IMG/VR virus record: IMGVR_UViG_3300028797_000097 | DNA from: a virus | Lineage: Duplodnaviria > Heunggongvirae > Uroviricota > Caudoviricetes | Direction: 5' to 3' (one strand) | DNA length: 42,647 nucleotides | Part shown: in pieces, positions 1,258 to 20,405 of the stretch | How the letters are laid out: each line of letters starts with the position of its first letter | Position numbering within the stretch: position 1 is the stretch's first letter | The notes under the pieces: generated by a model | The model's input: only the letters and a program-made list of their open reading frames with translations | The model's database searches: none | What the model was told of the DNA's origin: nothing | Position numbers and translations under genes: made by a program

Positions 1258-1263
1258 ATGAAT

Positions 1264-4941: not shown

Positions 4942-4943
4942 AG

Positions 4944-5035: not shown

Positions 5036-5058
5036 TAAAGTATAAAGAAGAGGTTATT

Positions 5059-5361
5059 ATGGAAACCATTATTGAAAAAAGACGTAGTTCTAAGACCTTT
5101 GGTTATGTCGTTGACATGGAAAATGATACCATGATTCTCGATTTCAATTCGTTGGAACCGGCGAAGAAGATGGGATTCCATATTATCCATAATTATGGTT
5201 TCAGCGAATATTTGAAATATGAAGCATCATTGATTACCTGTCAGGTATGTGGAAAAAGAGTGTTCGTATCGTTCGGAGTCGATCGTGTACGTCAACATGT
5301 ACCGAAATATACCGAGGTGATTAAATATTTCGAACAGATATTTGAAACTTTTGTTTCTTAA
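5059..5361 (+). CDS. Hypothetical early protein
   Basis: GAGG RBS; contains CxxC. Confidence 0.7.
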   Translation: METIIEKRRSSKTFGYVVDMENDTMILDFNSLEPAKKMGFHIIHNYGFSEYLKYEASLITCQVCGKRVFVSFGVDRVRQHVPKYTEVIKYFEQIFETFVS

Positions 5362-5422
5362 TCCAACCATTTACAAAAGTCCAGAATTTAACTATATTTA
5401 AGACATAAAGAAGAGGTTAATC

Positions 5423-5566
5423 ATGGAAGACATGACTTGGAAAGAAATTCTGTTCGTCATCATCATTTCGATTGTTGGTGGCTATATGGCCTATAACTAT
5501 GCTGAAAACTATCATGAAGTAGTAGCTGCTGCTAAGGTGATTAACGCACAAAACCAAAACAAGTAG
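5423..5566 (+). CDS. 47-aa membrane peptide
   Basis: Own promoter at about 5370-5398, GAGG RBS, hydrophobic helix. Confidence 0.6.
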   Translation: MEDMTWKEILFVIIISIVGGYMAYNYAENYHEVVAAAKVINAQNQNK

Positions 5567-5575
5567 GACGGAAAC

Positions 5576-5737
5576 ATGTTAATTAAATCCCGTTATAATG
5601 AGACAATCATATCTGACCACATTGAAAGTTTCAAGCGTCCGTATGGTTTGTTTCCATATTATCAAGTGGTTATGAAGTCTGGTGCTAAGCACGTTGTCCA
5701 TCCGGATGAACTACGTAAAGCGTTCCCTGACCTTTAA
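5576..5737 (+). CDS. 53-aa hypothetical protein
   Basis: AGGA RBS; ORF MLIKSRYNE... Confidence 0.5.
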   Translation: MLIKSRYNETIISDHIESFKRPYGLFPYYQVVMKSGAKHVVHPDELRKAFPDL

Positions 5738-5830
5738 TTAGAATCTGAATCTTTTATTTCTTAATCCAACCATTTACAAAACCGCAGAAATAAGCTATAT
5801 TATAAGTGTAAATCAACAGGAGATTAAAAT

Positions 5831-6463
5831 ATGGCAACAATCATTTTTTCTAACATGGGCGACACTGACACTGCGGTTCTGAGAAATCTCTGGAATGGAA
5901 TGCCGGATGTTAAGGTCGTTGAAATCGGTAAGTTCACGAGAAACGCACGTCGTATGGTTGACGAAGCAATCGCTCAAGAAACTGAAATGCTCGTGATGTG
6001 TGGGCACGGAACTCCGGAAGGTTTGATTAATCCGAATTTTACTGACTATGACCGCTATCTGGTTGACAGTCGCAATAAGAATCTGATCAGAGCAAAGTCC
6101 ATTGTCGGCATCTGGTGTCATGCAAAGGATTTCGCGGAACGTTACGGTGTTCGTGGTTTCTGGTCCAGCATGTTCATCAGCAATTTGATGGAAGCTCACT
6201 ACAACCATATCTACAATACCGACGCCGGAACGATTACCCACGACGAAACTATGTTCTGTCTGTTCACGAACTATCTGATTCGTAACAACGTTCCGCAGGA
6301 AAACTGGATTGATGTTCTCTGCAAGTGTGTGGATTTCAACGATCCGGTCATTCGATTCAACTACAGCGGACTCGTTTACTACGCAGAAGCTCCGAAGCCC
6401 AAATACAACTATGACCGCTGGTATAGTGTAATGGGATTTGAAAACACTCGCTGGTGGGGCTAA
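5831..6463 (+). CDS. Hypothetical protein, possible caspase/gingipain-fold (clan CD) peptidase
   Basis: LVMCGHG and IVGIWCHA strand-His-Gly and strand-Cys pattern; own promoter and AGGAG RBS. Confidence 0.5.
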   Translation: MATIIFSNMGDTDTAVLRNLWNGMPDVKVVEIGKFTRNARRMVDEAIAQETEMLVMCGHGTPEGLINPNFTDYDRYLVDSRNKNLIRAKSIVGIWCHAKDFAERYGVRGFWSSMFISNLMEAHYNHIYNTDAGTITHDETMFCLFTNYLIRNNVPQENWIDVLCKCVDFNDPVIRFNYSGLVYYAEAPKPKYNYDRWYSVMGFENTRWWG

Positions 6464-6555
6464 GTTTTTCCATAACCTCCTGATGATGAATGAGATGACC
6501 GAGATTAATTTCTCGGTCATTTCATATTTACAAATCTTCGGAATTTAACTATATT
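6464..6555 (+). repeat. Intergenic cassette copy 2
   Basis: Identical 26-nt motif, stem gagatgaccgaga/tctcggtcatttc, promoter. Confidence 0.85.
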
Positions 6556-6586
6556 ATAGATGTAACGAATAACAAAAGAGGTTAAC

Positions 6587-6817
6587 ATGTCATTGAAGAC
6601 GACGATTGAATGGTATACAACTCAGGAAAAGATGCCTACCGATAAGAGCAACGTTATGTTCGTTATGAAGAACGGAAAGACTCATTGTGGTTATTTCTAC
6701 ATCGCATGTGATATTCCACATTTCTGCTATGTTGACCGTGAATGGAATAATGTTACGAGAGATTGTCATATTCTCGATATTAAACTATGGGCATACCAAC
6801 CGACTGTAACGTTTTAA
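6587..6817 (+). CDS. DUF551-like phage protein
   Basis: W...EKMP N-terminus and WAY near the C-terminus. Confidence 0.55.
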   Translation: MSLKTTIEWYTTQEKMPTDKSNVMFVMKNGKTHCGYFYIACDIPHFCYVDREWNNVTRDCHILDIKLWAYQPTVTF

Positions 6818-6828
6818 TAGAGGCTATT

Positions 6829-7035
6829 ATGTGTGCATATTGTGAAGGTCCAATGACTTTAGCTCTTATTGAACTCGGTGAAATTACAAAAAATAAACAT
6901 GAATATTCCTACATTAAGATTGAAAAGGGTAGGTTAGTTTTCCGTTCTGTCAATAGCAAAACAGGTACGCCAACTGATATTGGTACGAGAGCTAAATTCT
7001 GCATTGAATGCGGAAGAAAATTAACCGAAGATTAA
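6829..7035 (+). CDS. Small zinc-finger protein
   Basis: GAGG RBS before MCAYC...; C-terminal CIECG. Confidence 0.65.
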   Translation: MCAYCEGPMTLALIELGEITKNKHEYSYIKIEKGRLVFRSVNSKTGTPTDIGTRAKFCIECGRKLTED

Positions 7036-7087
7036 TCATTTACAAAAATACAGAATTTAACTATATTATAGACATAACGATGAGGTT

Positions 7088-7405
7088 ATGAATATGAATA
7101 CAACACATTTTGTCATCATGAATCAAATGAACACCACCAACATGATTAATCAAATGAACATGATGCATATAATGCACAACCACAATACACCGGGAACGGT
7201 GTGCACTCTCACTGGTATGGATGTGGTGATTATGATTGTTGGATTCATTCTGCTCCTCTGGGGTGGCATAAAGGTCACGGAATGGCTGCTCGAAAAGACC
7301 TATAAAATGAAGGATCCGATGGGCTCTATCGTGTTTGTCGTCGGAATGTTTGGCTACGTAATCGTCGGTGTCACGGTAATTAGCCTGTTTATGTATCTGA
7401 TTTAA
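7088..7405 (+). CDS. Membrane protein with Met/Asn/His-rich N-terminus
   Basis: Two hydrophobic helices, low-complexity MN repeats, own promoter. Confidence 0.65.
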   Translation: MNMNTTHFVIMNQMNTTNMINQMNMMHIMHNHNTPGTVCTLTGMDVVIMIVGFILLLWGGIKVTEWLLEKTYKMKDPMGSIVFVVGMFGYVIVGVTVISLFMYLI

Positions 7406-7410
7406 CGAAA

Positions 7411-7502
7411 GTTTTTCCATAACCTCCTGATGATGATAGAGGCACCTGGGTGAAATATCCCAGGTGTTTCTTATTTACAAAATATCCAAATTTTTCTATA
7501 TT
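7411..7502 (+). repeat. Intergenic cassette copy 3
   Basis: Identical 26-nt motif, stem gaggcacctggg/cccaggtgtttc, promoter. Confidence 0.85.
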
Positions 7503-7525
7503 ATAGATGTAACACGGAGGTTATC

Positions 7526-7756
7526 ATGTTTAAGAAGTTCATAGAAAGAATCAAAGCAGCATTCACGTTTAAACCGACTGCCATCAAACTCGACCCAAAG
7601 AATTTTACTCCATTTCAATGGAATTTGATTCAGAAGCATGAACGTTTCATTGGGGAAAAGAATCGTAACTATTTCCGTGACCATGCGGAAGATTGGGCTA
7701 AATGCTGGGATGAAGAATATTACCGAGCAAAAACTGCCACAGCAAGAGGTAAGTGA
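7526..7756 (+). CDS. Hypothetical early protein
   Basis: GGAGG RBS. Confidence 0.7.
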   Translation: MFKKFIERIKAAFTFKPTAIKLDPKNFTPFQWNLIQKHERFIGEKNRNYFRDHAEDWAKCWDEEYYRAKTATARGK

Positions 7757-7772
7757 TTAATTTAAAAACAAG

Positions 7773-7809
7773 AATTCAGGGTTACAAAACTCTGGATTTT
7801 TTCTATATT
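7773..7809 (+). promoter_or_regulatory. Hairpin-embedded early promoter/terminator
   Basis: aattcagg-GTTACAaaac-tctggatt-tttt, TATATT at N17. Confidence 0.7.
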
Positions 7810-7842
7810 ATAGATGTAACCAACAAATAAAAGGAAATTAAA

Positions 7843-8007
7843 ATGACACTCGTTTTCGCAATCATCGCAATCGTATGCATCTGTTTTGGGATTTGCCAAC
7901 TCTGTGGCGGCTATGCGGTGGGTTCTGGTTTCGCTGCTATTCTATTTGGTGTGGTATTGGCATTGCAGGAATGCGTTGGCGTCATCGATGTGATACCTAT
8001 GGTTTAA
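7843..8007 (+). CDS. 54-aa two-helix membrane peptide
   Basis: AAGGA RBS; almost entirely hydrophobic. Confidence 0.6.
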   Translation: MTLVFAIIAIVCICFGICQLCGGYAVGSGFAAILFGVVLALQECVGVIDVIPMV

Positions 8008-8023
8008 ATCAAAGGAGTCAAAC

Positions 8024-8215
8024 ATGAATTTTGAAGAATTCCGGAAAATGGTTGTATCTCGTGTCTATGACATGCGATATCCCCACGTGAGTGATGAAAA
8101 AGTGGACCAGATCATTGAAGCACATAGCGATATGATCAGCGATGAATTCGCCGATGATCCTACCGAAGATGGTGCCGACTGGGTTGCTCGTGAAATAGTA
8201 GCGTACTTCATGTAG
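8024..8215 (+). CDS. Small acidic hypothetical protein
   Basis: AAGGAG RBS. Confidence 0.65.
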   Translation: MNFEEFRKMVVSRVYDMRYPHVSDEKVDQIIEAHSDMISDEFADDPTEDGADWVAREIVAYFM

Positions 8216-8278
8216 TAACGTGGTCGGAACCACATTCGCGTTATAAGACCATGTTCTAATTACCCTATATATTTGACC

Positions 8279-8286
8279 TATAAATA
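8279..8286 (+). promoter_or_regulatory. T4-type late promoter
   Basis: TATAAATA upstream of the patatin gene. Confidence 0.7.
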
Positions 8287-8312
8287 TTAAAAACGGTATT
8301 TAAAGGTCATTT

Positions 8313-9182
8313 ATGGGTAAAAAACAATTATGTATAAGCGTTGAAGGTGGTGGTGCTTTAGGAATCGGTCCTTTAGCATTTATGTGTAGGATGGAGCAGG
8401 ATTTAGGGAAGAAAATATCAGATTTAACTTCCGCATTCACTGGTACGTCTACTGGAGCTATTATCGCTGCATGTTTGGCAGAGGGAATGAGTGCACATGA
8501 GGTGTTTGACCTATACAGGAACAATTTAAAGAAGATTTTTACCAAGTATTCCTGGTATAAGCGTCTCCAACCAAAATGCCCTACATACGACAATACGAAC
8601 CTTAAGAAGCTCCTTCAAGCTAATCTTAAGGGTAAGTGCAGCGATTGGAAAAAGCCTATCTACATCACCTCTACGTTCATGAATGGTGATTCTGTGGAGA
8701 AGGTTTGGGACTTAGGAGATAAAGAAACCGACAAATGGTTTGCGGTCCTTTCCAGTACAGCAGCGCCGACATACTTCGATGTATTGGAACGCAATGGTGA
8801 ATCATACTGCGATGGTGGTATGTGGGCAAATTGTCCGGCAGACATAGTAATTGCAGGTCAGTTTAAGCAGGGGAACAAGAATCTTAAGCTCCTCAACTTT
8901 AATACTGGTATGGACACACCAAATACGGAAAAGGGTAACAAGACATTACTTGGTTGGGCAGAATATATCTTCTCTGACTGGACAGCACGTTCTTCCAAAT
9001 CCCCAATCTACGAAGCAAAAGCTATTCTTGGTAACGATGCTGTGTTCGATGCCTCTCCGAAGCATAATAAGAAGATTAAGATGGATAAGGTAGATGATGA
9101 TACCATTAACCAGATTATCGATATTTGGCAAAAGTATTACGAATCCGTCAAACCAGACATAAAGGCATTCATGAATCGATAA
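8313..9182 (+). CDS. Patatin-like phospholipase
   Basis: EGGGALG oxyanion motif, GTSTG nucleophile elbow, SSTAAPTYF, DGG. Confidence 0.92.
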   Translation: MGKKQLCISVEGGGALGIGPLAFMCRMEQDLGKKISDLTSAFTGTSTGAIIAACLAEGMSAHEVFDLYRNNLKKIFTKYSWYKRLQPKCPTYDNTNLKKLLQANLKGKCSDWKKPIYITSTFMNGDSVEKVWDLGDKETDKWFAVLSSTAAPTYFDVLERNGESYCDGGMWANCPADIVIAGQFKQGNKNLKLLNFNTGMDTPNTEKGNKTLLGWAEYIFSDWTARSSKSPIYEAKAILGNDAVFDASPKHNKKIKMDKVDDDTINQIIDIWQKYYESVKPDIKAFMNR

Positions 9183-9192
9183 GGAGGCATCG

Positions 9193-9948
9193 ATGTTTAC
9201 GAACGACTATTGCCAATATGTCTATGATTACTTCAATAAGGATTTCTTCCAGAAAGAACTTGGAGTCAAGCTTGGAAAGTGTACGATCTTCACCAACAAG
9301 AAAGGTGATGCGAAGAAGATCTTTCCATCAAGCTTAAACGGGGATAAGGAGGATGATCCATTCGGCCTTTCCATAACTCTGTTAGGACATAACTACATCT
9401 GGATCAACCCGTTACTCCTCAACAGCAAGAAACTCCTAGTCAACACCATTCTCCATGAGATGATTCACCTGTATGTCAACGCTGTGGGTAACAACGGATC
9501 CAGACGTTACCGTCAAGGACATGGAAAGCTTTGGACCCAGACAGCGAAGTATGCCCAGTCGTTGTACGGTGAAGACCTCGGTAATATAGAACAATTCGCG
9601 ACCAAAGATGAGATGAAGAAGTATAACCATTATTACGGAATCAGAACAACTAAGTCTCTGGTCAATGCGTATTTGGTTAAGCTCACATCAGGTGATTTGG
9701 TTCCGTTGAAGGATTTAACTCCAGAACAGATTGTGGAACTCCAGGGGATGAATATCATTGGTATTTACCAGGTGAAACCAGGAATCCAGCAGGAACCGAG
9801 CAAGAGAGTAACAAAGTTCATCGATTGGGACACGCTTATCGATTGTATCGAAAACGGAATCGATTATGAAACAGAATCGGTCTGTGGTCATTTAAGGATT
9901 AAAATAGGTGAGGACACCGATACAGTTTGGCTTAGAAGACGCGGATAG
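9193..9948 (+). CDS. SprT-like zinc metalloprotease
   Basis: TILHEMIH followed by GHG..W; N-terminal Y..FN..FF. Confidence 0.8.
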   Translation: MFTNDYCQYVYDYFNKDFFQKELGVKLGKCTIFTNKKGDAKKIFPSSLNGDKEDDPFGLSITLLGHNYIWINPLLLNSKKLLVNTILHEMIHLYVNAVGNNGSRRYRQGHGKLWTQTAKYAQSLYGEDLGNIEQFATKDEMKKYNHYYGIRTTKSLVNAYLVKLTSGDLVPLKDLTPEQIVELQGMNIIGIYQVKPGIQQEPSKRVTKFIDWDTLIDCIENGIDYETESVCGHLRIKIGEDTDTVWLRRRG

Positions 9949-9974
9949 CTATAAATAAGTATAAGGAGATTAAA

Positions 9975-10442
9975 ATGAAACCAGAGGTTAAGAAAGCTTT
10001 ATATCTATTGGAAAACATTGGTTATACGGTAAAGCCAATGAATGAATCAGAACAGCAGGATTTAATTGATACCATCAAGTCCAAGTATGACGAATGGAAT
10101 GAATTGCGTAATACCCCGGAAGGTGATGACTTATGGGATGAAATGGCTGATGCTTATGGTAATGACCTTATTGATTTAGCTGTCGATGAATATGATAATC
10201 TTAAGAACGGAAAGCCTGTAGACATGACTGGTTACTTGGCCCACGCTGATGCTTTATACCCGGAATTCTTCGAGCTTATGCAGAAGGTCGGCGCTAAGGC
10301 ATTTAAGATTAACACTAAGGAAGCATTCGGCGGAAAAGCTTATTACCTCTATCAAGCTATTGCAGAGGGTAACATCCAGTTGCATCCGGAAGCTTATAAC
10401 TCCAGCGCTCCAGAATATGCTTTCTTCACCATAAAGGACTAA
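9975..10442 (+). CDS. Late hypothetical protein, possibly head-associated
   Basis: TATAAATA at 9950-9957, AAGGAG RBS, LLE/N and MNE/S putative cleavage sites. Confidence 0.65.
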   Translation: MKPEVKKALYLLENIGYTVKPMNESEQQDLIDTIKSKYDEWNELRNTPEGDDLWDEMADAYGNDLIDLAVDEYDNLKNGKPVDMTGYLAHADALYPEFFELMQKVGAKAFKINTKEAFGGKAYYLYQAIAEGNIQLHPEAYNSSAPEYAFFTIKD

Positions 10443-10477
10443 CTCCTCATTAGTTGCCAGAAACAAAGAATATACAG

Positions 10478-10516
10478 AAATCTAGGGTTGACAAAGCCCT
10501 AGGTTTTTATTATATT
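10478..10516 (+). promoter_or_regulatory. Hairpin-embedded early promoter/terminator
   Basis: aaatctaggg-TTGACAaag-ccctaggttt-tt, TATATT at N17. Confidence 0.78.
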
Positions 10517-10538
10517 ATGCGCATAAACAAGAGGATTT

Positions 10539-11309
10539 ATGACTCATTCTGATTTCATCGCAAACAAGATTAGCATGTCGGCACGATTGAAGGCCGATGT
10601 GGAACAACTCCAAAAGACAATCGATTACAAGGTCACGAGCGCAAACGCTATTGATGCGTATCTGGAAGCCGACGAACAGCGCGAAAAACATAAGAACACG
10701 GTCATGTGGCGTGTTAATATGCAGAAAGCTATCGCATTGGCTAAAACTGCGGTCGAATACGGTAAGAAGGTTTATGGCGACATGTTCTGTTGCCCAGTAT
10801 TCATCAACAATCTGATTCAATTTGAACCGAAATTGAACAGGATGATTCAAAAATATCCAGAAGAGTATTTGAGTCGCGAAGACCAGTTCCACTCTGCTGC
10901 AATCGGTCCTGGAAATGACCATGTGGTTGAAGTCGAAGATGAACATCAGGTCGAATCTATCGAAGCTCCGAACCGGAAAGAAAAGGCATCGAAACATGAC
11001 TGGACTCCCGAAGAAATTGGTCATTTGTTGCATGGTGACCATGACTATCTCCGCGAAAAGGTCGGTCTGACGTATGACCAGCTCGGTGGAAAAACTCGCG
11101 AACTCGGTTATGTTTTCCGTTACAACAGCCCGGTTAATAAGCCGAAGGTGTTTAACCGACTCGTGATTGGTTGTCACCCCGACTGGTTGGAGATGATTAA
11201 GAACGGAGACGTTGACGAGCTGATTGATGTCCAGAAAATCCGTCCGTCCGCTATTGCCAATGTCGCGAAGAAAAACGGATTCGATATTCCTGCCCGCTGT
11301 CTAGTATAG
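10539..11309 (+). CDS. Hypothetical early protein
   Basis: 256-aa ORF with GAGGA RBS. Confidence 0.75.
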   Translation: MTHSDFIANKISMSARLKADVEQLQKTIDYKVTSANAIDAYLEADEQREKHKNTVMWRVNMQKAIALAKTAVEYGKKVYGDMFCCPVFINNLIQFEPKLNRMIQKYPEEYLSREDQFHSAAIGPGNDHVVEVEDEHQVESIEAPNRKEKASKHDWTPEEIGHLLHGDHDYLREKVGLTYDQLGGKTRELGYVFRYNSPVNKPKVFNRLVIGCHPDWLEMIKNGDVDELIDVQKIRPSAIANVAKKNGFDIPARCLV

Positions 11310-11330
11310 CGTCTGATTAGAAGTAAAATT

Positions 11331-11369
11331 AAAGTCCGGGGTTACAAAACTCCGGATTTTTTCTATATT
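11331..11369 (+). promoter_or_regulatory. Hairpin-embedded early promoter/terminator
   Basis: aagtccggg-GTTACAaaac-tccggattt-ttt, TATATT at N17. Confidence 0.75.
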
Positions 11370-11393
11370 ATGAATATAACAGAGAGGTTAATT

Positions 11394-11519
11394 ATGGCAT
11401 ATCATCATTGCGGCGGAACGAATCCTATTGGTTTTGAACTGAATTATGAAACCATTGCTACTGCACTTATTATTATTGGTTTGATTGCATTTCCGTTCCT
11501 TATCTACTTTACAAAATAA
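11394..11519 (+). CDS. 41-aa membrane peptide
   Basis: GAGG RBS; C-terminal hydrophobic helix. Confidence 0.6.
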   Translation: MAYHHCGGTNPIGFELNYETIATALIIIGLIAFPFLIYFTK

Positions 11520-11550
11520 ATTGATACCTCCCCGTTCATATAAATAATAT

Positions 11551-11988
11551 ATGAATTGGAAGGATTACATCACAGAAGCTGAGGAGATTCTTGAACAGAA
11601 CCAACTTGACGAGAAACTGGTACGGAAATACCATGTCGAGAATGGTTTAAAGAAGGTAAAGGTAGTCTCCGATAAGCCTGGTTACAGAGTGGAATACGAC
11701 GATAATCACCAACCACATGAGGTGAAGATTACTAAGGCGGAAGAGATGCATCGTCGTATGGGCGCAAAGGTCGGTAAGTTAAAGCACAATAAGGCGCGAG
11801 AACAGGCATTGCGTAAAAAGTCTTTCCTTAAGCGTGCACGCGCTGGTCTGGATTACAATAAGGATGTTCCAGAGCTTAACACCAGGCGCGAACAAGGAGA
11901 AACTCTTAAATCTGACCAGAAAGGCTTGTTAAAACAGAAACTCCAGAATCTTAAAGACAAGCTGATGAAAGACATTGTTAAGGTATAA
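11551..11988 (+). CDS. Prohead core protein-like (T4 gp68 family)
   Basis: Late promoter at 11539; N-terminal YITE/A; basic region ending RKKSFLKRARAGL, resembling the gp68 C-terminus. Confidence 0.55.
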   Translation: MNWKDYITEAEEILEQNQLDEKLVRKYHVENGLKKVKVVSDKPGYRVEYDDNHQPHEVKITKAEEMHRRMGAKVGKLKHNKAREQALRKKSFLKRARAGLDYNKDVPELNTRREQGETLKSDQKGLLKQKLQNLKDKLMKDIVKV

Positions 11989-12019
11989 AAAAGAACCGGT
12001 TGTTATGACCGGTTTTCTT
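11989..12019. terminator. Bidirectional terminator between convergent units
   Basis: aaaagaaccggt-tgttatg-accggttttctt. Confidence 0.75.
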
Positions 12020-12422
12020 ATATCTCCTGTAACAGATCTTCCGTTCTGACCTGATCCAGCTCTATCTTAACCTCTGCGATATGGTTTAAGATCCACCATT
12101 CCGGATAAATAATACCATTTATGTCGATTATGTACCTGATATAATATACCTGACCTTTCTCATGTCCGCGATGATCCTCATGTAAGATTCTAGTCGGAAA
12201 ACGATAGTGTAGGAGTGGAACCCAGCTTTCGCATTTCCTGTACAGGGATGAAGCAGGAACAGGATAATCGCGCTGGCGAATTCTAGCATCACCCTCGCCC
12301 ACGATGTACCATATTCCGTCATGCTGGTGCAATCGGGGTTTGGACAGGTTAAAGGTACAATCCCATTCCCATACAGGATCATGGTATGATCCATAACTCC
12401 TTATCTCCTGTAACTTAATCAT
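12018..12422 (-). CDS. Array A paralog 11
   Basis: MIKL... to IDING...HIAEVKIELDQVRTEDLLQEI. Confidence 0.8.
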   Translation of the reverse strand: MIKLQEIRSYGSYHDPVWEWDCTFNLSKPRLHQHDGIWYIVGEGDARIRQRDYPVPASSLYRKCESWVPLLHYRFPTRILHEDHRGHEKGQVYYIRYIIDINGIIYPEWWILNHIAEVKIELDQVRTEDLLQEI

Positions 12423-12792
12423 CGATCTCCTGTATTACCTTTTCCGTGTGTATGTCCTCGATCAGCGCCTTAACCTCACTGAAATGATCCAGGAGGTATG
12501 TGTAATCATATACCTTACCATCAATCAGCAAGTCAATATCATGGGTACGCTTGGTGTAATCGATTTCCGCGTATTCGCCAATCCAGTCATGCGCGAAATG
12601 CCCGATGTACGCGAATGAGGTGTTCTTCTTCCGGTCGTACACCGATATATAAGTATCATCCTGTAAGTCTAGCTGGTTGAGGTTGGAAATAGGTGATACG
12701 ACCTTTTCTATTACTGGATCTATCGTATTTTCCAGATGCGTTTCTGTTCCGTGTGAATAATAGCTTGTAACTTTAAACTGTACCCTACTCAT
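12415..12792 (-). CDS. Array A paralog 10
   Basis: LLIDGKVY...HFSEVKALIEDIHTEKVIQEIDD. Confidence 0.8.
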   Translation of the reverse strand: MSRVQFKVTSYYSHGTETHLENTIDPVIEKVVSPISNLNQLDLQDDTYISVYDRKKNTSFAYIGHFAHDWIGEYAEIDYTKRTHDIDLLIDGKVYDYTYLLDHFSEVKALIEDIHTEKVIQEIDD

Positions 12793-13234
12793 CCATCCCC
12801 TTCAGATATAATTCCGTATTGTAATCGCTGATTTGGGACTGTAACCACGCGAAGTTCTCCTTAACCTCGTCATGCCAGTATTCCGTATCGTCTACGACCA
12901 GACAGAAGAAAGGTCCTGGATTCGTTTCTACTCCTGGTGGAGGCACATTCATACAGTCACTGGAATTAATGGTACAACCGTTAAACCAATCGCTATACCG
13001 TACTGTACCATCCTCCTCAATCTCTGATAGGTTGAATGTAACAGCGAGAACCTCACCAGTATGGATGTCACACCATTCCTGTCGATGTAACACCAGTGGT
13101 TTTGGGAGATCTATGTCCTCGCTGACCCATTCTGGATCCCCAAGCGTACCTCGAAGAGTAACATCCTTACCCTTTACCGTTCCGTGAATGTACATCCTGT
13201 TATGACCCTTGAAATATTTTCTCAATTTAATCAT
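12785..13234 (-). CDS. Array A paralog 9
   Basis: MIKLR... to LVVDDTEY...NTELYLKGMDE. Confidence 0.8.
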   Translation of the reverse strand: MIKLRKYFKGHNRMYIHGTVKGKDVTLRGTLGDPEWVSEDIDLPKPLVLHRQEWCDIHTGEVLAVTFNLSEIEEDGTVRYSDWFNGCTINSSDCMNVPPPGVETNPGPFFCLVVDDTEYWHDEVKENFAWLQSQISDYNTELYLKGMDE

Positions 13235-13592
13235 CTGTAATTTCCTCGATTAACTGTCTGGCAACAGCATCGCTTATAATCGCTCTCATTTCCGTTTCAT
13301 GGGAGTAAATGTCACTGTACCTGTACTCCTTACCATCTATCTCCAGATAGGTTTCATAGTTCAGGAACGTACCGATTTCGAACTGACAATGAGGAGTCTT
13401 AGGAAAACCACCATCCTCGCGTGGATCATAGAAATTGATTTCCAGTCTGTACTCACCTACTCCAGGATGGTAGTGTCGGGTTAATGGAGTAGGTTTGGTC
13501 TTGAGGAGAATAATCGGATACGATAAATCCGGAATATTCGTACTGTTTTGAGCTTTCTCGTTAAATGCTTTCGAAACTACTTTGATCATCAT
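13227..13592 (-). CDS. Array A paralog 8
   Basis: LEIDGKEYRYSDI..H..E...QLIEEITDD. Confidence 0.8.
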   Translation of the reverse strand: MMIKVVSKAFNEKAQNSTNIPDLSYPIILLKTKPTPLTRHYHPGVGEYRLEINFYDPREDGGFPKTPHCQFEIGTFLNYETYLEIDGKEYRYSDIYSHETEMRAIISDAVARQLIEEITDD

Positions 13593-13911
13593 CTATCTCC
13601 TGTAATAGCTTTTCCGTATATATACGATCGAATAACACCTTAAGTTCAGCGTAATGCTCCTTCACCTGTGCTTCATCGTACTCCTTATCATCTATCACCA
13701 GAATGGTACGGATTGTTCTGTACCCGTCCTTATCCAACTTCCATGTATCACCTATCCTGTCCCATGTATTCCACTCACTGGGAATCCCATCCCAACGATA
13801 GCTAATAGCTGGTACGGAACTCCTATCATCGAGGTGTACATCAAGGATGGTTTTGTCTTCTACCTTCTCCTCTGGTGTTCCAAGGTCGGTTATTGTACGT
13901 AGCTTAATCAT
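13561..13911 (-). CDS. Array A paralog 7
   Basis: LVIDDKEY...HYAELKVLFDRIYTEKLLQEIDD plus a short extension. Confidence 0.8.
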   Translation of the reverse strand: MIKLRTITDLGTPEEKVEDKTILDVHLDDRSSVPAISYRWDGIPSEWNTWDRIGDTWKLDKDGYRTIRTILVIDDKEYDEAQVKEHYAELKVLFDRIYTEKLLQEIDDDQSSFESI

Positions 13912-14215
13912 CTATCTCCTCTAAAAGCTTTTCCATACGCTCCTGGTCCAGTAACACCTTCACCTCAGCGTAATGCTTGCGAATCTTCTCTGCCCTGTAT
14001 TCCGTACCATTTATGACCAATGACGCGATAAAATCGACAAAACCTTCGCTATTCATGTATGTACCTAAAACGGAATAGTGTGATCCTGGGTACTCAGAAC
14101 TGCGGTCATAATGTACAGCGAGACCACACTTATCTTCTGATAGTACGACATTCCATATTTCTGCTTCTCGTACCTTAACTCTGGGGTAACAGTTCATGTA
14201 CCGTATCTTTACCAT
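13904..14215 (-). CDS. Array A paralog 6
   Basis: LVINGTEY...HYAEVKVLLDQERMEKLLEEIDD. Confidence 0.8.
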   Translation of the reverse strand: MVKIRYMNCYPRVKVREAEIWNVVLSEDKCGLAVHYDRSSEYPGSHYSVLGTYMNSEGFVDFIASLVINGTEYRAEKIRKHYAEVKVLLDQERMEKLLEEIDD

Positions 14216-14547
14216 TCTATCTCCTGCGTTATGGTTTCGATGTTTATCTCTGCTTCATAGTCTGACATTGCTGTCATAAGCTTTGCTGGTTCTTCCAGAA
14301 GTGAATAGGAGCGTACCCATTGCGAGGTAATTAGCTCCAGGAAGATACTGTCGGATTCGATCCAGTTCCGATTGATTCGCATACAGATTGGGGGTTGTCC
14401 CATGTCCTCCTGGATCCAATACTCCAGTTGAAACACTCCATCAAGGAGATAATACCTGTACCCATTGACCAGCTCATCAACTACTGGTTCTGGCGCTACG
14501 GAACGATCGTCACGCGGATTCTGTACTGTGTAATGAACCTTAATCAT
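14209..14547 (-). CDS. Array A paralog 5
   Basis: IFLELITSQW...LMTAMSDYE...TQEIEW; most similar to paralog 4. Confidence 0.8.
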   Translation of the reverse strand: MIKVHYTVQNPRDDRSVAPEPVVDELVNGYRYYLLDGVFQLEYWIQEDMGQPPICMRINRNWIESDSIFLELITSQWVRSYSLLEEPAKLMTAMSDYEAEINIETITQEIEW

Positions 14548-14842
14548 CTATCTCCTCTAAAAGCTTTTCCGTTTCATAGTCTGACATCGCGGCCATAAGT
14601 ACAGTGGGGGATTCAGCGAAGGAGTACTTCCTGGTCCAGCGTGGGGTTTCCAGTTCTAGGTAGATCCTGTCATAATGGAGATTCCACCCCTTACCGACAT
14701 GCATCGGTTCTGGGGGTTCATCTGGACCCATCCATTCCCTATAGAAGAATTCGAATTCACCATTATAGATCTGGTACTGGTATTCTCCAAATACCGGATC
14801 CACGATTACCGGATCCACGTTCTCATACCTGATCCGAATCAT
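14540..14842 (-). CDS. Array A paralog 4
   Basis: IYLELETPRW...LMAAMSDYETEKLLEEIDD. Confidence 0.8.
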   Translation of the reverse strand: MIRIRYENVDPVIVDPVFGEYQYQIYNGEFEFFYREWMGPDEPPEPMHVGKGWNLHYDRIYLELETPRWTRKYSFAESPTVLMAAMSDYETEKLLEEIDD

Positions 14843-15203
14843 CTATATCCTCCAACAGGTGTTCCGTCTCGTTTATGTCCAGTAACGACCGTACCTCTGC
14901 GATATGGGTTACAATCTCTGAGTAACGCCATTCCTTACCGTCTATCTCCAACCATGAGTCGTGATTGGTGAATCGACCCAGCCTGACCTTATGCATCTGA
15001 TGTACCTTCTCCGTATCGGTAAGGGAGTACCAATGAGGAGTATCGTAATACTGTATCTCCAAGTACTTGGTGTCGATCGCGTCTATTTGCCGTTCCATCT
15101 TATGCGGATCCACGTCCATGAGACGTAGCTGTACCAGGTGATACACCTCACTGGGATGAGGATCCTCGTTCAGGTCCGGAATATGGAGTAACACCTTAAC
15201 CAT
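14823..15203 (-). CDS. Array A paralog 3
   Basis: LEIDGKEWRYSEI..HIAEV...ETEHLLEDIDD. Confidence 0.8.
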   Translation of the reverse strand: MVKVLLHIPDLNEDPHPSEVYHLVQLRLMDVDPHKMERQIDAIDTKYLEIQYYDTPHWYSLTDTEKVHQMHKVRLGRFTNHDSWLEIDGKEWRYSEIVTHIAEVRSLLDINETEHLLEDIDDSDQV

Positions 15204-15672
15204 CTATCTCCTCCAGTAATGTATCAGTACGGATCTGGTCGAATAACACCTTCATGTCCATCATATGTTCCTTCAAGTACTCGAACGGGTATTCTTTCCA
15301 GTTGATGTACAGTATGGACTTACAGGGGTACAGGATGGTGTTGATCCCATGCGCGAATCTGGTTTTTCCAACACGGAGATTCTGTATCTCCTCCCTGTAC
15401 ATACTTGGAGGCGGTTCCAAGTACCGACCAATGTCTATCTTCACCCTATCTCCTACCTTACGAAGCGGATCATGCCCCTTCCATGACTGGACTCGACCCC
15501 GAATAACAATCGATTGGTTCGACATCTGTACCCGATAGTCCTTAAGATTATAGGTTTCCAGTTCTATCGTAACAGATTTAGGATCCAGGGTATGAGAGGA
15601 GAAATCCAGCTCCGGTTTTATTCCATCCCATTTACACTGATAGGAGTACATTTCTACTGTAACGTTATACAT
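15196..15672 (-). CDS. Array A paralog 2 (start reassigned to MYNVTV)
   Basis: GGAGGA RBS and overlap junction at 15672; LYINWKEY...HMMDMKVLFDQIRTDTLLEEIDG. Confidence 0.8.
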   Translation of the reverse strand: MYNVTVEMYSYQCKWDGIKPELDFSSHTLDPKSVTIELETYNLKDYRVQMSNQSIVIRGRVQSWKGHDPLRKVGDRVKIDIGRYLEPPPSMYREEIQNLRVGKTRFAHGINTILYPCKSILYINWKEYPFEYLKEHMMDMKVLFDQIRTDTLLEEIDG

Positions 15673-16123
15673 CCATGTCCTCCAGTAACATATCAGTACG
15701 GACTTGGTCCAGGAGAATGCGTAAGTCATTCAAATGATCTCGTACATACTGGTTATTATATTCCGTACCATCTATAATCAATGTACTGTGGCGCGTGATG
15801 TTTATATACTTAACCGTTGGACTTATCCGGAATTGTTTTGCATATCTAGCGCGTTCCACATCTGTTATCGCCCTGTCCTCATCCAGTGTGAATAGCCAGG
15901 ATTCTCCCTTTCTCCTTAATACCCAACTATCATCCACAACCTTTCCGTCCTGATCATGTAGTTCTGTAACAATAGCGTTAACCTTCATAATACTAGGATC
16001 CATAGCGAAATATCCCAGAGAAACGGAACAAGGATCCAACAGGAACTCGTGATACCACGATCCTGGAATGATTCCTTCCCTACTGTACTTATACCTGTAA
16101 TTCCGTACTAAAACACTATGCAT
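15665..16123 (-). CDS. Array A paralog 1
   Basis: LIIDGTEY...HLNDLRILLDQVRTDMLLEDMDV. Confidence 0.8.
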   Translation of the reverse strand: MHSVLVRNYRYKYSREGIIPGSWYHEFLLDPCSVSLGYFAMDPSIMKVNAIVTELHDQDGKVVDDSWVLRRKGESWLFTLDEDRAITDVERARYAKQFRISPTVKYINITRHSTLIIDGTEYNNQYVRDHLNDLRILLDQVRTDMLLEDMDV

Positions 16124-16149
16124 ACATCTCCAGTAATTTCATATCCCTA

Positions 16150-16178
16150 AATATAACAAATCTTTTACCATCTGTCAA
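16150..16178 (-). promoter_or_regulatory. Early promoter driving array A
   Basis: TTGACA-gatggtaaaagatttgt(17)-TATATT on the minus strand. Confidence 0.8.
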
Positions 16179-16253
16179 TACCCAAGTTATCTGAATAATA
16201 AAATATACAGAATTAGTATTTACATTTATTCCAAATTTTTCTATATTATGAAC

Positions 16254-16358
16254 ATGAACGAACGAATTGACAACATCAAACATTTCATTGGTCTCGGCAT
16301 CATTAACATTGTTTGCCGCATCTGTAAAATCCATTATCTGCACGTTATCAAGAGTTAA
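16254..16358 (+). CDS. 34-aa peptide, probably leaderless
   Basis: TTTACA(16219)-N17-TATATT(16242), then ATG near +1; MNERIDNIKHFIGLGIINIVCRICKIHYLHVIKS. Confidence 0.4.
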   Translation: MNERIDNIKHFIGLGIINIVCRICKIHYLHVIKS

Positions 16359-16458
16359 CTGCAAAAAAGAAAATCTAGAATTTAGGGTTTACAAATCAAT
16401 CAAAATTAACTATATTTAAATCATCGAAAACAACCAATCATCAAAAGGAAAAATCATC

Positions 16459-16836
16459 ATGGAACAGATTATCAACATGATTCTCGGTCAGTCCAACATC
16501 AATCTCCAGGCATTCGGTTTGAATGTTCAGAACCAGACAGCACAGCCGACCACTGTGGAAACCATCCAGGCAAAAATCAATCTCATCAAACAGCTCGATT
16601 CCATTCCGGCAGCACATCAGTTTGTTGAAGATTTCCAGATTGAAACTGTGAACCAGTTGGACAGTCTGATGAATATGGAATCTGTTATCGGTCTCAAGCC
16701 GACTGACGCTCAACTCTGGGCCATCAACAACAAGATCGATGCTATCATCAATGAACTCGAGACTGGTCTGAAGAACAAGATGCTCGCTCAGCTCAATGGT
16801 CTCGGACTCGGTGCTCTGAGTGGTCTGGTCCACTAG
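16459..16836 (+). CDS. Gln/Asn-rich helical hypothetical protein
   Basis: TTTACA-N17-TATATT promoter at about 16388-16416; AAAGGA RBS. Confidence 0.7.
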   Translation: MEQIINMILGQSNINLQAFGLNVQNQTAQPTTVETIQAKINLIKQLDSIPAAHQFVEDFQIETVNQLDSLMNMESVIGLKPTDAQLWAINNKIDAIINELETGLKNKMLAQLNGLGLGALSGLVH

Positions 16837-17275
16837 GGCTGACCTGGGGGGTGTCAGATTGTCTGACGCCCTTATATGACCTGCCTGACGTCAAGAGATC
16901 TGACGCCATATGGGCATAACGTCAAGGTTTACGACGTAGCCTACGACGCCCCGGGGGCCCCGGGGGGGGCGCCCCCCGTACTGACACCCCGGCGCAAAAC
17001 GGGAACGGGCTTGAAAAAAATGTGTCGAGGCCATATAGGGCTTTAAACCCCCTGGGGGAGGGGGGCCCGGGGCCTTATAGGTTTTGTTTTTCGTGTGTGT
17101 CTCTCTCTCCCAAAAAATAAAAAATTTTAAAAATTTTTGGTTATTTTCTGGTTATCAGGTTATTTCTGGTTCTCTGGTTATTCTGGATTTCAGGATAACC
17201 TTTTATTTTACCCCCGCCCGGGCTTGTTTTTGAAAAGGCTGTCTGCCAAAAAATTTTTTGAAAAATTTTTTTATA
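16837..17275. other. Non-coding GC-rich palindrome/repeat element (candidate replication origin or genome terminus)
   Basis: (T)GACG/CTGAC repeats, G/C homopolymer palindromes, TCTGGTTA-like repeats, A/T tracts, no ORF. Confidence 0.55.
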
Positions 17276-17319: not shown

Positions 17320-17691
17320 ATGGATAATATGGATATGGAACCTTTATTGAAGTCGTATATTAGGTATGCGATGGGATTTGTGCCTAAGGAGCGGATGGCA
17401 TATGCTACTAATAATGGTAAATATGACCGTATTAAGATATTGGTTAATTCTAAGGGTAATATAATTGAAGAAAATACATATGCTATAACCTTTGAGTTAT
17501 ATAATGGTGAACAGCGTATTATTATAGGTAGTTTGTGGTTATCGGGAAGGAATCTTTATATAATAGAGACGGTATGTAATATCGTATTATATAGAAGACA
17601 TATACAGGAAATGATGGAATTTAATGAATTTTGTGAAAAGAATAATAATATTCCTAAGGGTATATTGAAGATTCCTACGAGGTTAGTATGA
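17320..17691 (+). CDS. Array B paralog 1
   Basis: LKSYIRYA... to IPKGILKIPTRLV. Confidence 0.8.
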   Translation: MDNMDMEPLLKSYIRYAMGFVPKERMAYATNNGKYDRIKILVNSKGNIIEENTYAITFELYNGEQRIIIGSLWLSGRNLYIIETVCNIVLYRRHIQEMMEFNEFCEKNNNIPKGILKIPTRLV

Positions 17692-18053
17692 CAGATTTTG
17701 ATAGTTTAAAATCATATATTGCGTATATTGTGAAAAATACAGGTTTTAAGGTTGAGCAGTGGCTATTACTGTCATTGGTAAATTTAAATAAGGAAAGTAT
17801 TAAGATAACGACTATATTGAATGATGGTAGTGCGTTATTCGATATATTGGATTATTTAGGGAATAATAAGATTATTGGTCGTATATGGTTTAATTGTAAC
17901 CATATAGTGCTTGTTAAAAATGAGGTTGAGCGTTCGCTGTTATATATTGGTTGGCCTGAAGATGTCGATTTATATAGTGTATTTGAGAAGAAAGTGATGT
18001 TACCTGTGGTTCCTTCTGGAATTTTGAAGATTCCTACTGATTTTAAGGTATGA
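17688..18053 (+). CDS. Array B paralog 2
   Basis: LKSYIAYI... to LPVVPSGILKIP. Confidence 0.8.
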   Translation: MTDFDSLKSYIAYIVKNTGFKVEQWLLLSLVNLNKESIKITTILNDGSALFDILDYLGNNKIIGRIWFNCNHIVLVKNEVERSLLYIGWPEDVDLYSVFEKKVMLPVVPSGILKIPTDFKV

Positions 18054-18054
18054 T

Positions 18055-18456
18055 ATGATAGATATTAGCGGAATAACTATGAAAGAATTGACAGAATATG
18101 CCGATTACTGTATGGGTAAGATACCTATAGAGGAGCGTTCTCGATTTCCTGGCGAGATGCGGGGAATAAGTAACGAGGTACGGTGTGACCGATATCATGG
18201 AGTTGAATCTGCTATAATAGATGCAAGCCCTGAGGATAAGAGTTTTATTATAGACATATATGATTCTAGTCGTAGGCAGGTTATGGCGGCTAGGATATGG
18301 TTGAACAACGGGCGTATTTATTTGATTGATTGGCTTGAGACTAGTTTATTATATGATAAGACGCCTGATGGGATTGAAACTTTTGAGGAGTTTAAGGCGA
18401 GGATAACGTTACCTAAGGTTCCTGCTGGGATATTGAAGATACCGGAGAGAATATGA
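18055..18456 (+). CDS. Array B paralog 3
   Basis: LTEYADYC... to LPKVPAGILKIPERI. Confidence 0.8.
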   Translation: MIDISGITMKELTEYADYCMGKIPIEERSRFPGEMRGISNEVRCDRYHGVESAIIDASPEDKSFIIDIYDSSRRQVMAARIWLNNGRIYLIDWLETSLLYDKTPDGIETFEEFKARITLPKVPAGILKIPERI

Positions 18457-18824
18457 GATATAGTGATTGGGAAATATTAATGTATGTAAGGTATTGTCTG
18501 GATAAGGTTTTATATTTTCAGGAAGGTGATCATATAAAAATGAGACATGATCATATAAAACTGAGACATGATTTTTGTAGTGATAGTATTATTATATATC
18601 CAGATAATACTGTTATGGCAGATATATTTTCTATGGGTGGAAGTCTTAAAACGACTGTCGCATTAAGTTTGGGTGAAGTTCATATTTATGCAGTGGATAT
18701 GATAGGTTATACGACATTATATGATGGAAGGCCTGCTACTGTAATGAATATTTCAGAATATATTGACAGTATAACGTTGCCTAAGGTTCCGAAAGGAATA
18801 TTGAAGATACCGGAGAAGTTATAA
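18453..18824 (+). CDS. Array B paralog 4
   Basis: LMYVRYC... to LPKVPKGILKIPEKL. Confidence 0.8.
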   Translation: MRYSDWEILMYVRYCLDKVLYFQEGDHIKMRHDHIKLRHDFCSDSIIIYPDNTVMADIFSMGGSLKTTVALSLGEVHIYAVDMIGYTTLYDGRPATVMNISEYIDSITLPKVPKGILKIPEKL

Positions 18825-19204
18825 TGTATATCGAGAATTATAAAGAAGAATTGATGGAATACATTAAGAGTTCTTTGGATAAGTTGCCATATAAGAGCGT
18901 ATTGTCGTCATTTGACCGGATTGAAATAACTGGGGAAGCGAATAATAATGGGGAATTTAAAGTAGAGTCTGGTATATTGTTTGATATGTGTAATGCAGAA
19001 AATGTAGTTATGTCGGGCTGTGTTTGGTATGATTATGGAACAATATACATTATAACAAAAAATGAAGATTATGAACATTATTATGCTTCAAATTGTTTAT
19101 ATTATGGACATCCTGATACATCTGTTGGTTTTGAAGAGTTTTTGAACAGTCAATTACCTAAGGTTCCAGTTGGTATTTTGAAACTTCCAGAGAGGGTTGC
19201 ATAA
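18824..19204 (+). CDS. Array B paralog 5
   Basis: LMEYIKSS... to LPKVPVGILKLPERVA. Confidence 0.8.
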   Translation: MYIENYKEELMEYIKSSLDKLPYKSVLSSFDRIEITGEANNNGEFKVESGILFDMCNAENVVMSGCVWYDYGTIYIITKNEDYEHYYASNCLYYGHPDTSVGFEEFLNSQLPKVPVGILKLPERVA

Positions 19205-19662
19205 TGACAAATTCTGAAATTGTTAAAGGATATGTATCGTATTGTATTTGTTATGTTCCTCGTGTTCATACAGCACGAGGTGAGATGCCGCTTGCGATAT
19301 TTAAGTTGGCTAATGTAAATATAGAACAGAATTCTAATGGAATTAACTACATTAATTTTGATTTGGTTGACGAATATGGGGTAATGTTTGCCGCGAATCA
19401 AAATTCATTTTATGAAAGAGCATTAAATCCTTATGGATTTTATAATGCTGGTTTAAACCATGTTGTTGTAAAAGGAAATATATCTATGAAGACTGGATAT
19501 ATTCAGTTAATAGATACATTTAATGGTCGGTGGTTTTACAGCGGGATTCCTGATAGTATTCGGACTTTTGACCAATATGTGGAAAATTTGGAAGAACGTG
19601 GACTTAAAGAGAAACCTAAGGGATTGTTGAAGATTCCTGCACATATGATGACAGCGGTATAG
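19204..19662 (+). CDS. Array B paralog 6
   Basis: VKGYVSYC... to KPKGLLKIPAH. Confidence 0.8.
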   Translation: MTNSEIVKGYVSYCICYVPRVHTARGEMPLAIFKLANVNIEQNSNGINYINFDLVDEYGVMFAANQNSFYERALNPYGFYNAGLNHVVVKGNISMKTGYIQLIDTFNGRWFYSGIPDSIRTFDQYVENLEERGLKEKPKGLLKIPAHMMTAV

Positions 19663-19663
19663 A

Positions 19664-20023
19664 ATGGCAGAAATTATAAGTAAAGAAACTGATGATGTGG
19701 AAACATTATATAAATATGTCCAATTCTGTCTTGAGAAAGCCAGAGTCGGGAAGTTATATAATTTGACTTTAGAAAAGCTGACAAAAACAGGAAATTTATA
19801 TTTTTATTATATGACGCAGAATTCTGGAACTCTTAGGATAATGTGTTATATTAATTTACATACATGTTATTATAATGCGTTTGAACCACGATGTCGTCGG
19901 TATATTCATCATAGTATAATAAAGGGAATACCTAATTATATTGATTTTGCAAGTAATAACGAACAAGGATTTGTAAGTGTTCCGAAGGGAATATTGAAGA
20001 TTCCGAAAAATTTAGGAGTATAA
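19664..20023 (+). CDS. Array B paralog 7
   Basis: LYKYVQFC... to VPKGILKIPKNL. Confidence 0.8.
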   Translation: MAEIISKETDDVETLYKYVQFCLEKARVGKLYNLTLEKLTKTGNLYFYYMTQNSGTLRIMCYINLHTCYYNAFEPRCRRYIHHSIIKGIPNYIDFASNNEQGFVSVPKGILKIPKNLGV

Positions 20024-20024
20024 T

Positions 20025-20405
20025 ATGCAACAATATACAGATTTTGAATTAACCAGGGTAAATAGTTATTTCAGGTTATGTATTGATTCGATTAAGGATA
20101 AGTTAGATCTTGAAACATATAACCTTGGTGTAATTTTACCTCATGGATCGGTTATTACATGTGTAGTTAAGTGTTATAAGAAGCCTCGTAATAAAATGGA
20201 TTTATATTCTGTTCTTTATAGGGATTATGCATTGCCTAAACAATATTATTGCATGATTGATGTTAAGCGAAATAATATAACGGTTAAGAACTTAGATGAT
20301 GGTGAAACATTATTTAGAGGAAAAACCGGAGTTAATACCACTTTTTCGGATTTTGTGTATGGTAAAGTTCGAAAAGGATTATTGAAAATTCCAGCAAAGT
20401 TATAA
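20025..20405 (+). CDS. Array B paralog 8
   Basis: VNSYFRLC... to KVRKGLLKIPAKL. Confidence 0.8.
   Translation: MQQYTDFELTRVNSYFRLCIDSIKDKLDLETYNLGVILPHGSVITCVVKCYKKPRNKMDLYSVLYRDYALPKQYYCMIDVKRNNITVKNLDDGETLFRGKTGVNTTFSDFVYGKVRKGLLKIPAKL

Follow-up and report, generated by a model that had tools for sequence, protein, structure and literature searches.

A family of diversified small proteins in a tandem array with dual-coding junctions in a T4-like jumbo phage

Why should a phage keep eleven small genes in a row that end alike and otherwise can barely be aligned? The question is raised by a 42,647-nucleotide stretch of DNA from a virus of the class Caudoviricetes (IMG/VR record IMGVR_UViG_3300028797_000097), referred to here as the window. 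Its array A consists of 11 open reading frames (ORFs) on the minus strand, encoding proteins of 100-158 amino acids (aa) and lying end to end from 16123 to 12018. The array A proteins, which are small, acidic and soluble, form a real family that is restricted to one clade and had not been described before, and we hold the structural and evolutionary description of the array given below with high confidence. The best overall explanation, that array A is an early operon of diverged small single-domain proteins acting as host-directed binders, has in our judgement an even chance of being correct.

A preliminary description of this DNA, made from the letters alone, placed one promoter and one terminator around 11 genes of 100-158 aa. 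This is borne out by the ORFs, by the promoter at 16178-16150 and by the hairpin at 11992-12016. In the order of transcription, the features are as follows (nt, nucleotides).

16150-16178, minus strand: sigma-70-like promoter (TTGACA, 17-nt spacer, TATATT, with TG one base upstream of the -10 box)
16116-16142, minus strand: junction-like leader, read from the sequence, with the mini-ORF MKLLEMYA (8 codons)
15665-16123, minus strand: gene 1, 152 aa, the only member without an MIK-type start; orthologues 64-76% identical
15196-15672, minus strand: gene 2, 158 aa, sister of gene 1
14823-15203, minus strand: gene 3, 126 aa; orthologues 59-94% identical
14540-14842, minus strand: gene 4, 100 aa, with a variant C-terminal module; E 7.8e-11 with an independent profile
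14209-14547, minus strand: gene 5, 112 aa, with a variant module and the tail ...ETITQEIEW; orthologues 81-96% identical
13904-14215, minus strand: gene 6, 103 aa, the shortest canonical member
13561-13911, minus strand: gene 7, 116 aa, with a long tail, DDDQSSFESI, overlapping gene 8 by 32 nt
13227-13592, minus strand: gene 8, 121 aa
12785-13234, minus strand: gene 9, 149 aa, the most divergent canonical member; orthologues 53-78% identical
12415-12792, minus strand: gene 10, 125 aa
12018-12422, minus strand: gene 11, the last, 134 aa, ending ...LLQEI without DD
11992-12016, no single strand: bidirectional hairpin terminator that closes array A and a convergent 145-aa gene

The promoter matches the sigma-70 consensus at 11 of 12 positions, and it is the top match between 11400 and 17400. 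The terminator has an 11-bp stem on the plus strand, and on the minus strand a 7-bp stem followed by CTTTTTTATA. Besides this one promoter and one terminator, no strong signals were seen inside array A. Adjacent genes overlap by 7-8 nt at 8 of the 10 junctions, and by 20 and 32 nt at the remaining two. Nine of the 11 genes start with M-[IVSM]-[KR], and all members are acidic (isoelectric points 4.2-6.4) and hydrophilic.

What, then, do these genes share? The last ~40 residues align in all 11 members, as L.IDG.EY....I..H.AEV..LLD..RTE.LLEEIDD, with a recognisable variant in genes 4 and 5. This is the C-terminal motif, and the variant, that the preliminary description had picked out, and its picture of a diversified set of paralogs with a constant C-terminal part is sound. 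The N-terminal parts are unalignable between paralogs beyond M-I/V-K, and the paralogs are overall 15-41% identical, genes 4 and 5 being 41% identical to each other.

The end of the module has a second role in the DNA. Junctions read ...YTR GAG GAG ATA GAT GAT TAA, with the ATG ATT AAG of the next gene nested within. The codons for E-E-I-D-D-stop also encode a GGAGGAG Shine-Dalgarno sequence 5 nt before the next ATG, and ATGATTAA contains both start and stop. The M-I-K with which each gene starts is the other reading of the preceding D-D-stop. Gene 1 starts MHS instead of MIK because no upstream gene overlaps it, and gene 11 lacks the DD because no downstream start overlaps it. The true start of gene 2 is the ATG at 15672, which overlaps the stop of gene 1 (ATGTATAA). 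The dual-coding junction couples translation along the operon.

It could be argued that a shared ending of this kind is produced at the DNA level, either by the overlap of ribosome-binding site (RBS) and start codon or by gene conversion, in genes that are otherwise unrelated. The EEIDD and MIK residues are indeed dual-coded, and the last ~30 nt are near-identical at several junctions, with 32 nt identical between 13903-13934 and 14539-14570. However, the overlap accounts for only about the last 5 codons of one gene and the first 3 codons of the next, while conservation extends through the 31 codons upstream of the junction. Over these, paralogs have an amino-acid identity of 0.34 and nucleotide identities of 0.47, 0.64 and 0.42 at codon positions 1, 2 and 3, so that third positions are only 42% identical; the proportion of synonymous differences is 0.67, against 0.45 for nonsynonymous differences. 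The overlap is therefore rejected as the full cause; the preliminary description had named a complete explanation by this overlap as something that would refute its reading. Gene conversion is rejected as well: the nucleotide identity of the module between paralogs is 0.532 within a genome and 0.533 between genomes (orthologues, 0.853), and since the two values are equal there is no gene conversion. Furthermore, profile matches span the full length of the proteins including their N-terminal parts, and the two structural models described below have one architecture. We find an origin as a DNA-level artefact scarcely credible. On the evidence of these comparisons, the module is conserved by selection on the protein.

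What follows EEI is not conserved: the tails are DD, DV, DG, DDSDQV, DDDQSSFESI, TDD, DE, or absent. As they vary in both length and content, there is no C-terminal peptide motif. Within the module about ten polar residues are conserved (D, E, H, E, D, R, T, E, E, E). In genes 4 and 5 much of this polar pattern is replaced, including the His and the DG turn, and for this reason a reading of the D...E...H..E pattern as a metal site or enzyme was dropped.

AlphaFold2, with family alignments, was used to model two of the paralogs, the products of genes 6 and 1. The model for gene 6 (m7a3cbcd3e924) has a predicted local distance difference test score (pLDDT) of 91.6 and a predicted template-modelling score (pTM) of 0.79, and is one compact domain, with strands at residues 2-8, 14-28, 31-38, 44-49, 51-54, 60-68 and 71-73 and helices at 75-80 and 82-102. 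The model for gene 1 (m0770a832b5d8; pLDDT 91.0, pTM 0.82) has the same order of elements, with longer hairpins and two inserted helices. The modelled members are predicted to consist of an N-terminal antiparallel β-sheet region, a final β-hairpin that carries L.IDG.EY, and a long amphipathic C-terminal helix. In both models the constant module is the last β-hairpin and the amphipathic capping helix of a single domain, rather than a detachable helix.

This has consequences for the earlier proposal of a constant docking or oligomerisation helix under a variable domain, against which the two models argue. In its full form the proposal is an adaptor: the variable N-terminal domain binds a target, and the constant C-terminal helix docks on a common partner or oligomerises. 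A shared partner, contacted via the polar residues of the module, is the main rival to the host-directed binders favoured here. The ten or so polar positions are conserved across 40-odd clusters of homologues and leave room for a common surface, and translational coupling would lead to near-equimolar synthesis; on the other hand, array size, at 5 to 11 members, argues against a fixed hetero-complex, and much of that pattern of polar residues has been replaced in genes 4 and 5. The helix itself speaks against docking, as its hydrophobic a/d pattern is that of a buried amphipathic helix, it aligns with a PH-like capping helix, and it belongs to a single compact domain in both models. Nor do the variable tails after EEI offer a docking motif at the free end. 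We consider the adaptor improbable.

Does the fold resemble anything known? Foldseek found nothing against the PDB at E < 0.3, and nothing against BFVD at E <= 0.001. An exhaustive search with VIA-align gave, for both models, the same top row, the PH domain of Akt (1h10_A), aligned end to end, with a Z score of 4.2 for gene 6 (76 residues aligned, root-mean-square deviation (rmsd) 4.3) and 4.4 for gene 1 (84 aligned, rmsd 4.9), where the usual background of the tool is 7-8. PH, PTB, RanBD and FERM-C rows fill much of both lists. A shape search of the ESM Atlas returned bPH_3 (a bPH_3/SHOCT cluster, template-modelling (TM) score 0.46) and DUF2244, at TM 0.46-0.48. The feature search of the same Atlas gave nothing usable for gene 6, and for gene 1 its scores were all <0.8, which is the noise range.

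The product of gene 6 is predicted to have the PH-like order of elements, in which an amphipathic capping helix at the C-terminus comes after seven antiparallel strands. It differs from the PH-like superfold in that the strands and helix of array A are longer, that gene 1 has extra helices, and that there is no match to Pfam bPH or PH models. The fold can thus tentatively be called PH-like, without a confident structural neighbour; the call is only tentative because the Z scores lie below the usual background of the tool. The likeness would be a resemblance of arrangement rather than an established membership.

Sequence searches place the family outside the known ones. With the 24,736 models of Pfam, the 11 members gave only DUF7369 (E 1.3e-3) and SET_TTL (E 0.039), in one member each, which we regard as noise because 11 x 24,736 tests were made; none of the models bPH_1 to bPH_6 matched any of the 11 members at E <= 0.1. 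Scans of the 11 members against PHROGs, PADLOC and NCBIfam gave 0 matches each. The array by blastn, and gene 6 by tblastn, found no match in 50,697 GenBank phages, and a profile search of PDB sequences had a best E of 0.51. Together with the BFVD result, these agree with the preliminary description, which had recognised no known family.

The family does extend beyond the window. A profile of 20 members, searched exhaustively against 1.84 billion representative proteins, identified 48 clusters at E <= 1e-3. Of these, 46 are proteins of 73-162 aa, and those that were aligned have the same module; the two long matches, P0073 (877 aa) and P0078 (400 aa), are low-complexity false positives. Four clusters whose surroundings were examined come from syntenic arrays in one metagenomic phage clade. 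The contexts are the same type of tandem array and, where the flank was captured, the same SprT-like, patatin and 145-aa neighbours. For gene 6, 38 homologues were recovered at identities of 50-97%, most of them orthologues, and the contigs with a homologue of this gene run into the hundreds. A profile built mostly from members in other phages matches 10 of the 11 ORFs of array A, with E values of 1e-11 to 1e-26, and no other ORF of >=50 aa in the 42.6-kb window.

How old are the differences between the paralogs? A maximum-likelihood tree of 51 members, drawn from six phages, resolves every one of the 11 orthogroups as a single clade, most of them with strong support. Genes 4 and 5 are sisters (100/99), as are genes 1 and 2 (94/94), while genes 6, 7 and 11 group more loosely. 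Each orthogroup being a single clade that is shared across phages, the paralogs are old and have been individually maintained; by this tree every orthogroup is older than the split of these phages.

Selection was measured as pairwise omega, pooled over the 23 pairs of orthologues that the window forms with three related arrays. The 1936 codons of the N-terminal parts have an omega of 0.27, and the 759 codons of the module one of 0.24. The N-terminal parts are therefore, as judged by omega, under purifying selection between orthologues, and no diversifying selection on them was seen in pairwise gene-wide omega, a measure that can mask site-specific selection. The preliminary description had called the N-termini hypervariable. 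This is correct for the comparison between paralogs and does not hold within orthogroups.

Comparison with related phages shows what has changed in the arrays. The preliminary description had suggested comparing array content between relatives, and the content does differ: the close relatives hold 5, 7, 9, 9, 9, 10 and 11 members, always in conserved order, and only whole cassettes differ. Distant relatives hold from 5 to at least 10 members of other orthogroups. Gene 5 is present in all 7 close relatives examined. Genes 2 and 4 are confined to the window and one of its relatives, the contig L010, gene 2 being absent from L016, L021, L022, L013 and L023. Gene 7 is missing in L010, L013 and L023, and gene 6 in L016. 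Gene 11 has two subtypes, the second of which occurs in L010 and L016, and L016 has both. No single phage has the whole repertoire, which comprises at least 15 orthogroups in the close relatives, to which the distant arrays add others.

Two chimeric genes indicate how cassettes are removed. In L010, a 111-aa 'gene 6' follows the gene 6 sequence as far as ...EKLLEEI and continues with the tail of gene 7 and the overlap of gene 7 with gene 8. In L016, L021 and L022, gene 1 switches to the sequence of gene 2 within GACCAGATCCGTAC...CTGGAGGAG, and then leads straight into gene 3. On the sequence evidence, both chimeras are in-register crossovers inside the shared module, by which one cassette is removed and the frame, RBS and start are left intact. 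The DNA of the junctions contains a repeat, D1, with 8 copies and up to 32 identical bases. This repeat supplies the homology for the crossover, and the junctions act as shuffling sites.

Further traces of such events may be present. In a more distant phage (L017:693-1382 and L018:220-909), a 229-aa gene contains two tandem family domains with two module matches; two cassettes apparently fused here once the stop at their junction was lost. In the window, the leader upstream of gene 1 mimics an array junction: the mini-ORF MKLLEMYA has a KLLE-like end, gives GGAG upstream of the gene 1 ATG, and has a stop that overlaps codons 2-3 of gene 1. Its own ATG coincides, to within a few bases, with the predicted start of the transcript. 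The mini-ORF looks like a relic of the C-terminus of a family cassette that was lost upstream.

Taken furthest, these observations would describe a standardised cassette system. The 3' end of each gene would be the core of the fold, the RBS and start for the next cassette, and the patch of homology for in-register unequal crossover, all at once, so that specificities against host defences could be swapped, dropped or added without breaking frames or expression. Array A would then be a plug-and-play counter-defence library, built possibly on a new small fold. In this complete form we think the idea unlikely. The junction is a clean natural example of a multigene repertoire that is kept both expressible and recombinable: a single short stretch encodes protein core, contains the Shine-Dalgarno sequence and the start and stop codons, and serves as the patch for recombination.

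When are the proteins made, and for what? The window, which belongs to a large phage genome of T4 type, has genes for a family-B DNA polymerase (PolB), both subunits of topoisomerase II, a split NAD-dependent ligase, a GroES-like fusion, a patatin and an SprT-like protein. Against gp43 of GenBank phages the polymerase reaches an identity of only 26-29%, and the close relatives are metagenomic contigs only, of up to 191 and 236 kb. The array A phage is an uncultured, deep-branching T4-like jumbo phage. In the genome assembly G001, which includes L016, every match to the family falls inside the one array.

The window has 16 copies of the T4-type late motif TATAAATA where 5.8 would be expected, and 0 of 100 shuffled sequences reached 16. 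The motif often lies 4-30 nt before a start codon (example sites are 8279, 9950, 11539, 20444, 33524, 38019, 39962 and 40707), including that of a 454-aa gene next to a second array, array B. On the minus strand between 12000 and 16400 the motif does not occur. From the sigma-70-like promoter and the lack of a late motif we infer that array A would be transcribed early, by the host polymerase.

The same evidence bears on the possibility that the proteins travel in the phage head and enter the cell together with the DNA, as the internal proteins of the T-even phages do. It has in its favour that the T4 internal proteins are a diverse anti-restriction set with a short conserved targeting part (PMC3012670), and that a late motif closely precedes the start of the neighbouring 454-aa gene. 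Against packaging, TATAAATA is missing from the strand of the array though enriched elsewhere in the window, the sole strong signal there is the sigma-70-like promoter, the conserved part is C-terminal and structural rather than an N-terminal cleavable peptide, and acidic proteins are ill-suited to packing with DNA. Packaging is in our view very unlikely.

Proteins that are early, small, soluble, dispensable between relatives and conserved where present are best read as accessory binders of proteins of the host or of rival elements. In the explanation favoured here, array A would be one early operon with eleven anciently diverged single-domain members, whose proteins, made early, would as a set bind specifically to different proteins of the host or of competing elements. 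Specificity would come from the variable sheet and loops, with the conserved hairpin and helix as the scaffold, and the role would be in host takeover or counter-defence. Drawn by analogy, the claim that the array is a repertoire of specific binders for these purposes is tentative, and we put it somewhat short of an even chance.

Alternatively, array A might serve processes of the phage itself, such as the timing of transcription, replication or superinfection exclusion. Array A adjoins the ligase, SprT-like, PolB and topoisomerase II genes, which function in replication and repair, and its members are under purifying selection without evident diversification, as would suit such a role. We give it little credence, in that genes 2, 4, 6 and 7 have each been lost somewhere among the close relatives, which is typical of accessory functions, and the proteins are acidic and match no known family, DNA-binding or otherwise.

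Several points weigh against host-directed binders. The functional half of the explanation is argued from context and analogy, and the early timing comes from a consensus match of the promoter, for an uncultured host. The resemblance to PH domains, tentative as it is and drawn from predicted models, is weak, with Z <5 and under the usual background. The ten or so conserved polar residues of the module exceed what a pure scaffold needs, and may form a shared interface. Finally, omega is well below 1, whereas an ongoing arms race might leave a diversifying signal. If the proteins are host-directed binders, they are an untapped set of >15 small, well-folding inhibitor or adaptor specificities, in a clade without a cultured member. 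Should their role prove to be a housekeeping one, the finding would amount to no more than an ordinary lineage-specific expansion.

It is worth adding some observations on the surroundings of the array. Array A and its left-hand neighbours (ligase, patatin, SprT-like; window 1-17000) have a GC content at third codon positions of 0.49-0.50, compared with 0.27-0.28 for array B and its right-hand neighbours (PolB, topoisomerase II; window 17000-42647). The boundary in codon usage is the 1.1-kb intergenic region that separates the two arrays. It is not an assembly chimera, because the related contig L010 has the same switch. Array B (window 17320-20405, plus strand) comprises 8 tandem paralogs with a common C-terminal PKGILKIP motif, and its copy number varies too, with 8 in L010, about 6 in L013 and about 5 in L023. 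Homology between arrays A and B was considered and rejected (hhalign probability 0.05%).

Beside the 454-aa gene, a neighbour of both PolB and array B, the relatives have a variable insertion spot. On its far side, L023 has an IS605 OrfB/TnpB-like gene (L023:170-1597). The spot contains a putative acetyltransferase in L010 (L010:3044-3580) and a 265-aa ORF in L013 (4993-5790) and L014. A search of IMG/VR with the flanking 145-aa protein found one locus, on the same contig as L013. The near-complete relative L016 (G001:C83, 191,090 bp) was binned within a 3.0-Mb, 92%-complete prokaryotic genome assembly, which is either a lead to the host or an artefact of binning.

How does array A compare with known systems? 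Close to it in outline are the internal proteins of the T-even phages (IPI, IPII, IPIII and polymorphic relatives), of which at least one, IPI*, is dedicated to inhibiting a host restriction enzyme (PMC3012670). In both cases small, highly diverse proteins with one short conserved part are encoded together at one locus of a T4-type phage, as a variable set that differs between relatives. The T-even proteins have a conserved N-terminal capsid-targeting peptide, which the prohead protease cleaves off, and are packaged in the head, whereas array A has its conserved part in the C-terminal third of the fold, its only strong promoter is of early type and its proteins are acidic. Array A has neither a late T4-type promoter nor a conserved N-terminal targeting sequence, only M-I/V-K being shared there, which is imposed by the overlap. 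Between array A and the T-even internal proteins there is no match in sequence or in fold.

The second comparison is with the counter-defence gene tifA of T4, which is amplified and lost by recombination, in the manner of an 'accordion' (PMC9391042). The likeness lies in the change of copy number of tandem accessory genes through short homologous stretches, with compensating losses, and in array A recombination between short repeats is documented by the two independent chimeric genes. The difference is one of age: copies of tifA are recent and near-identical, whereas the array A paralogs, at 15-41% identity, fall into old clades and orthogroups, with no recent near-identical tandem copies among them. 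The low identity and the old orthogroups point to a long-maintained, diversified repertoire and not to a transient amplification.

The third is with Bacillus phage G, in which about 35 copies of a zinc ribbon are a lineage-specific expansion of a small domain in a jumbo phage (PMC7824862). Here too a large phage genome has a clade-restricted expansion of one small domain. Array A differs in that its copies all lie in one translationally coupled operon, have standardised dual-coding junctions, and belong to no recognisable family. As a diversified accessory-gene array of a large phage, array A is thus of a known kind, while the family that makes it up is itself undescribed.

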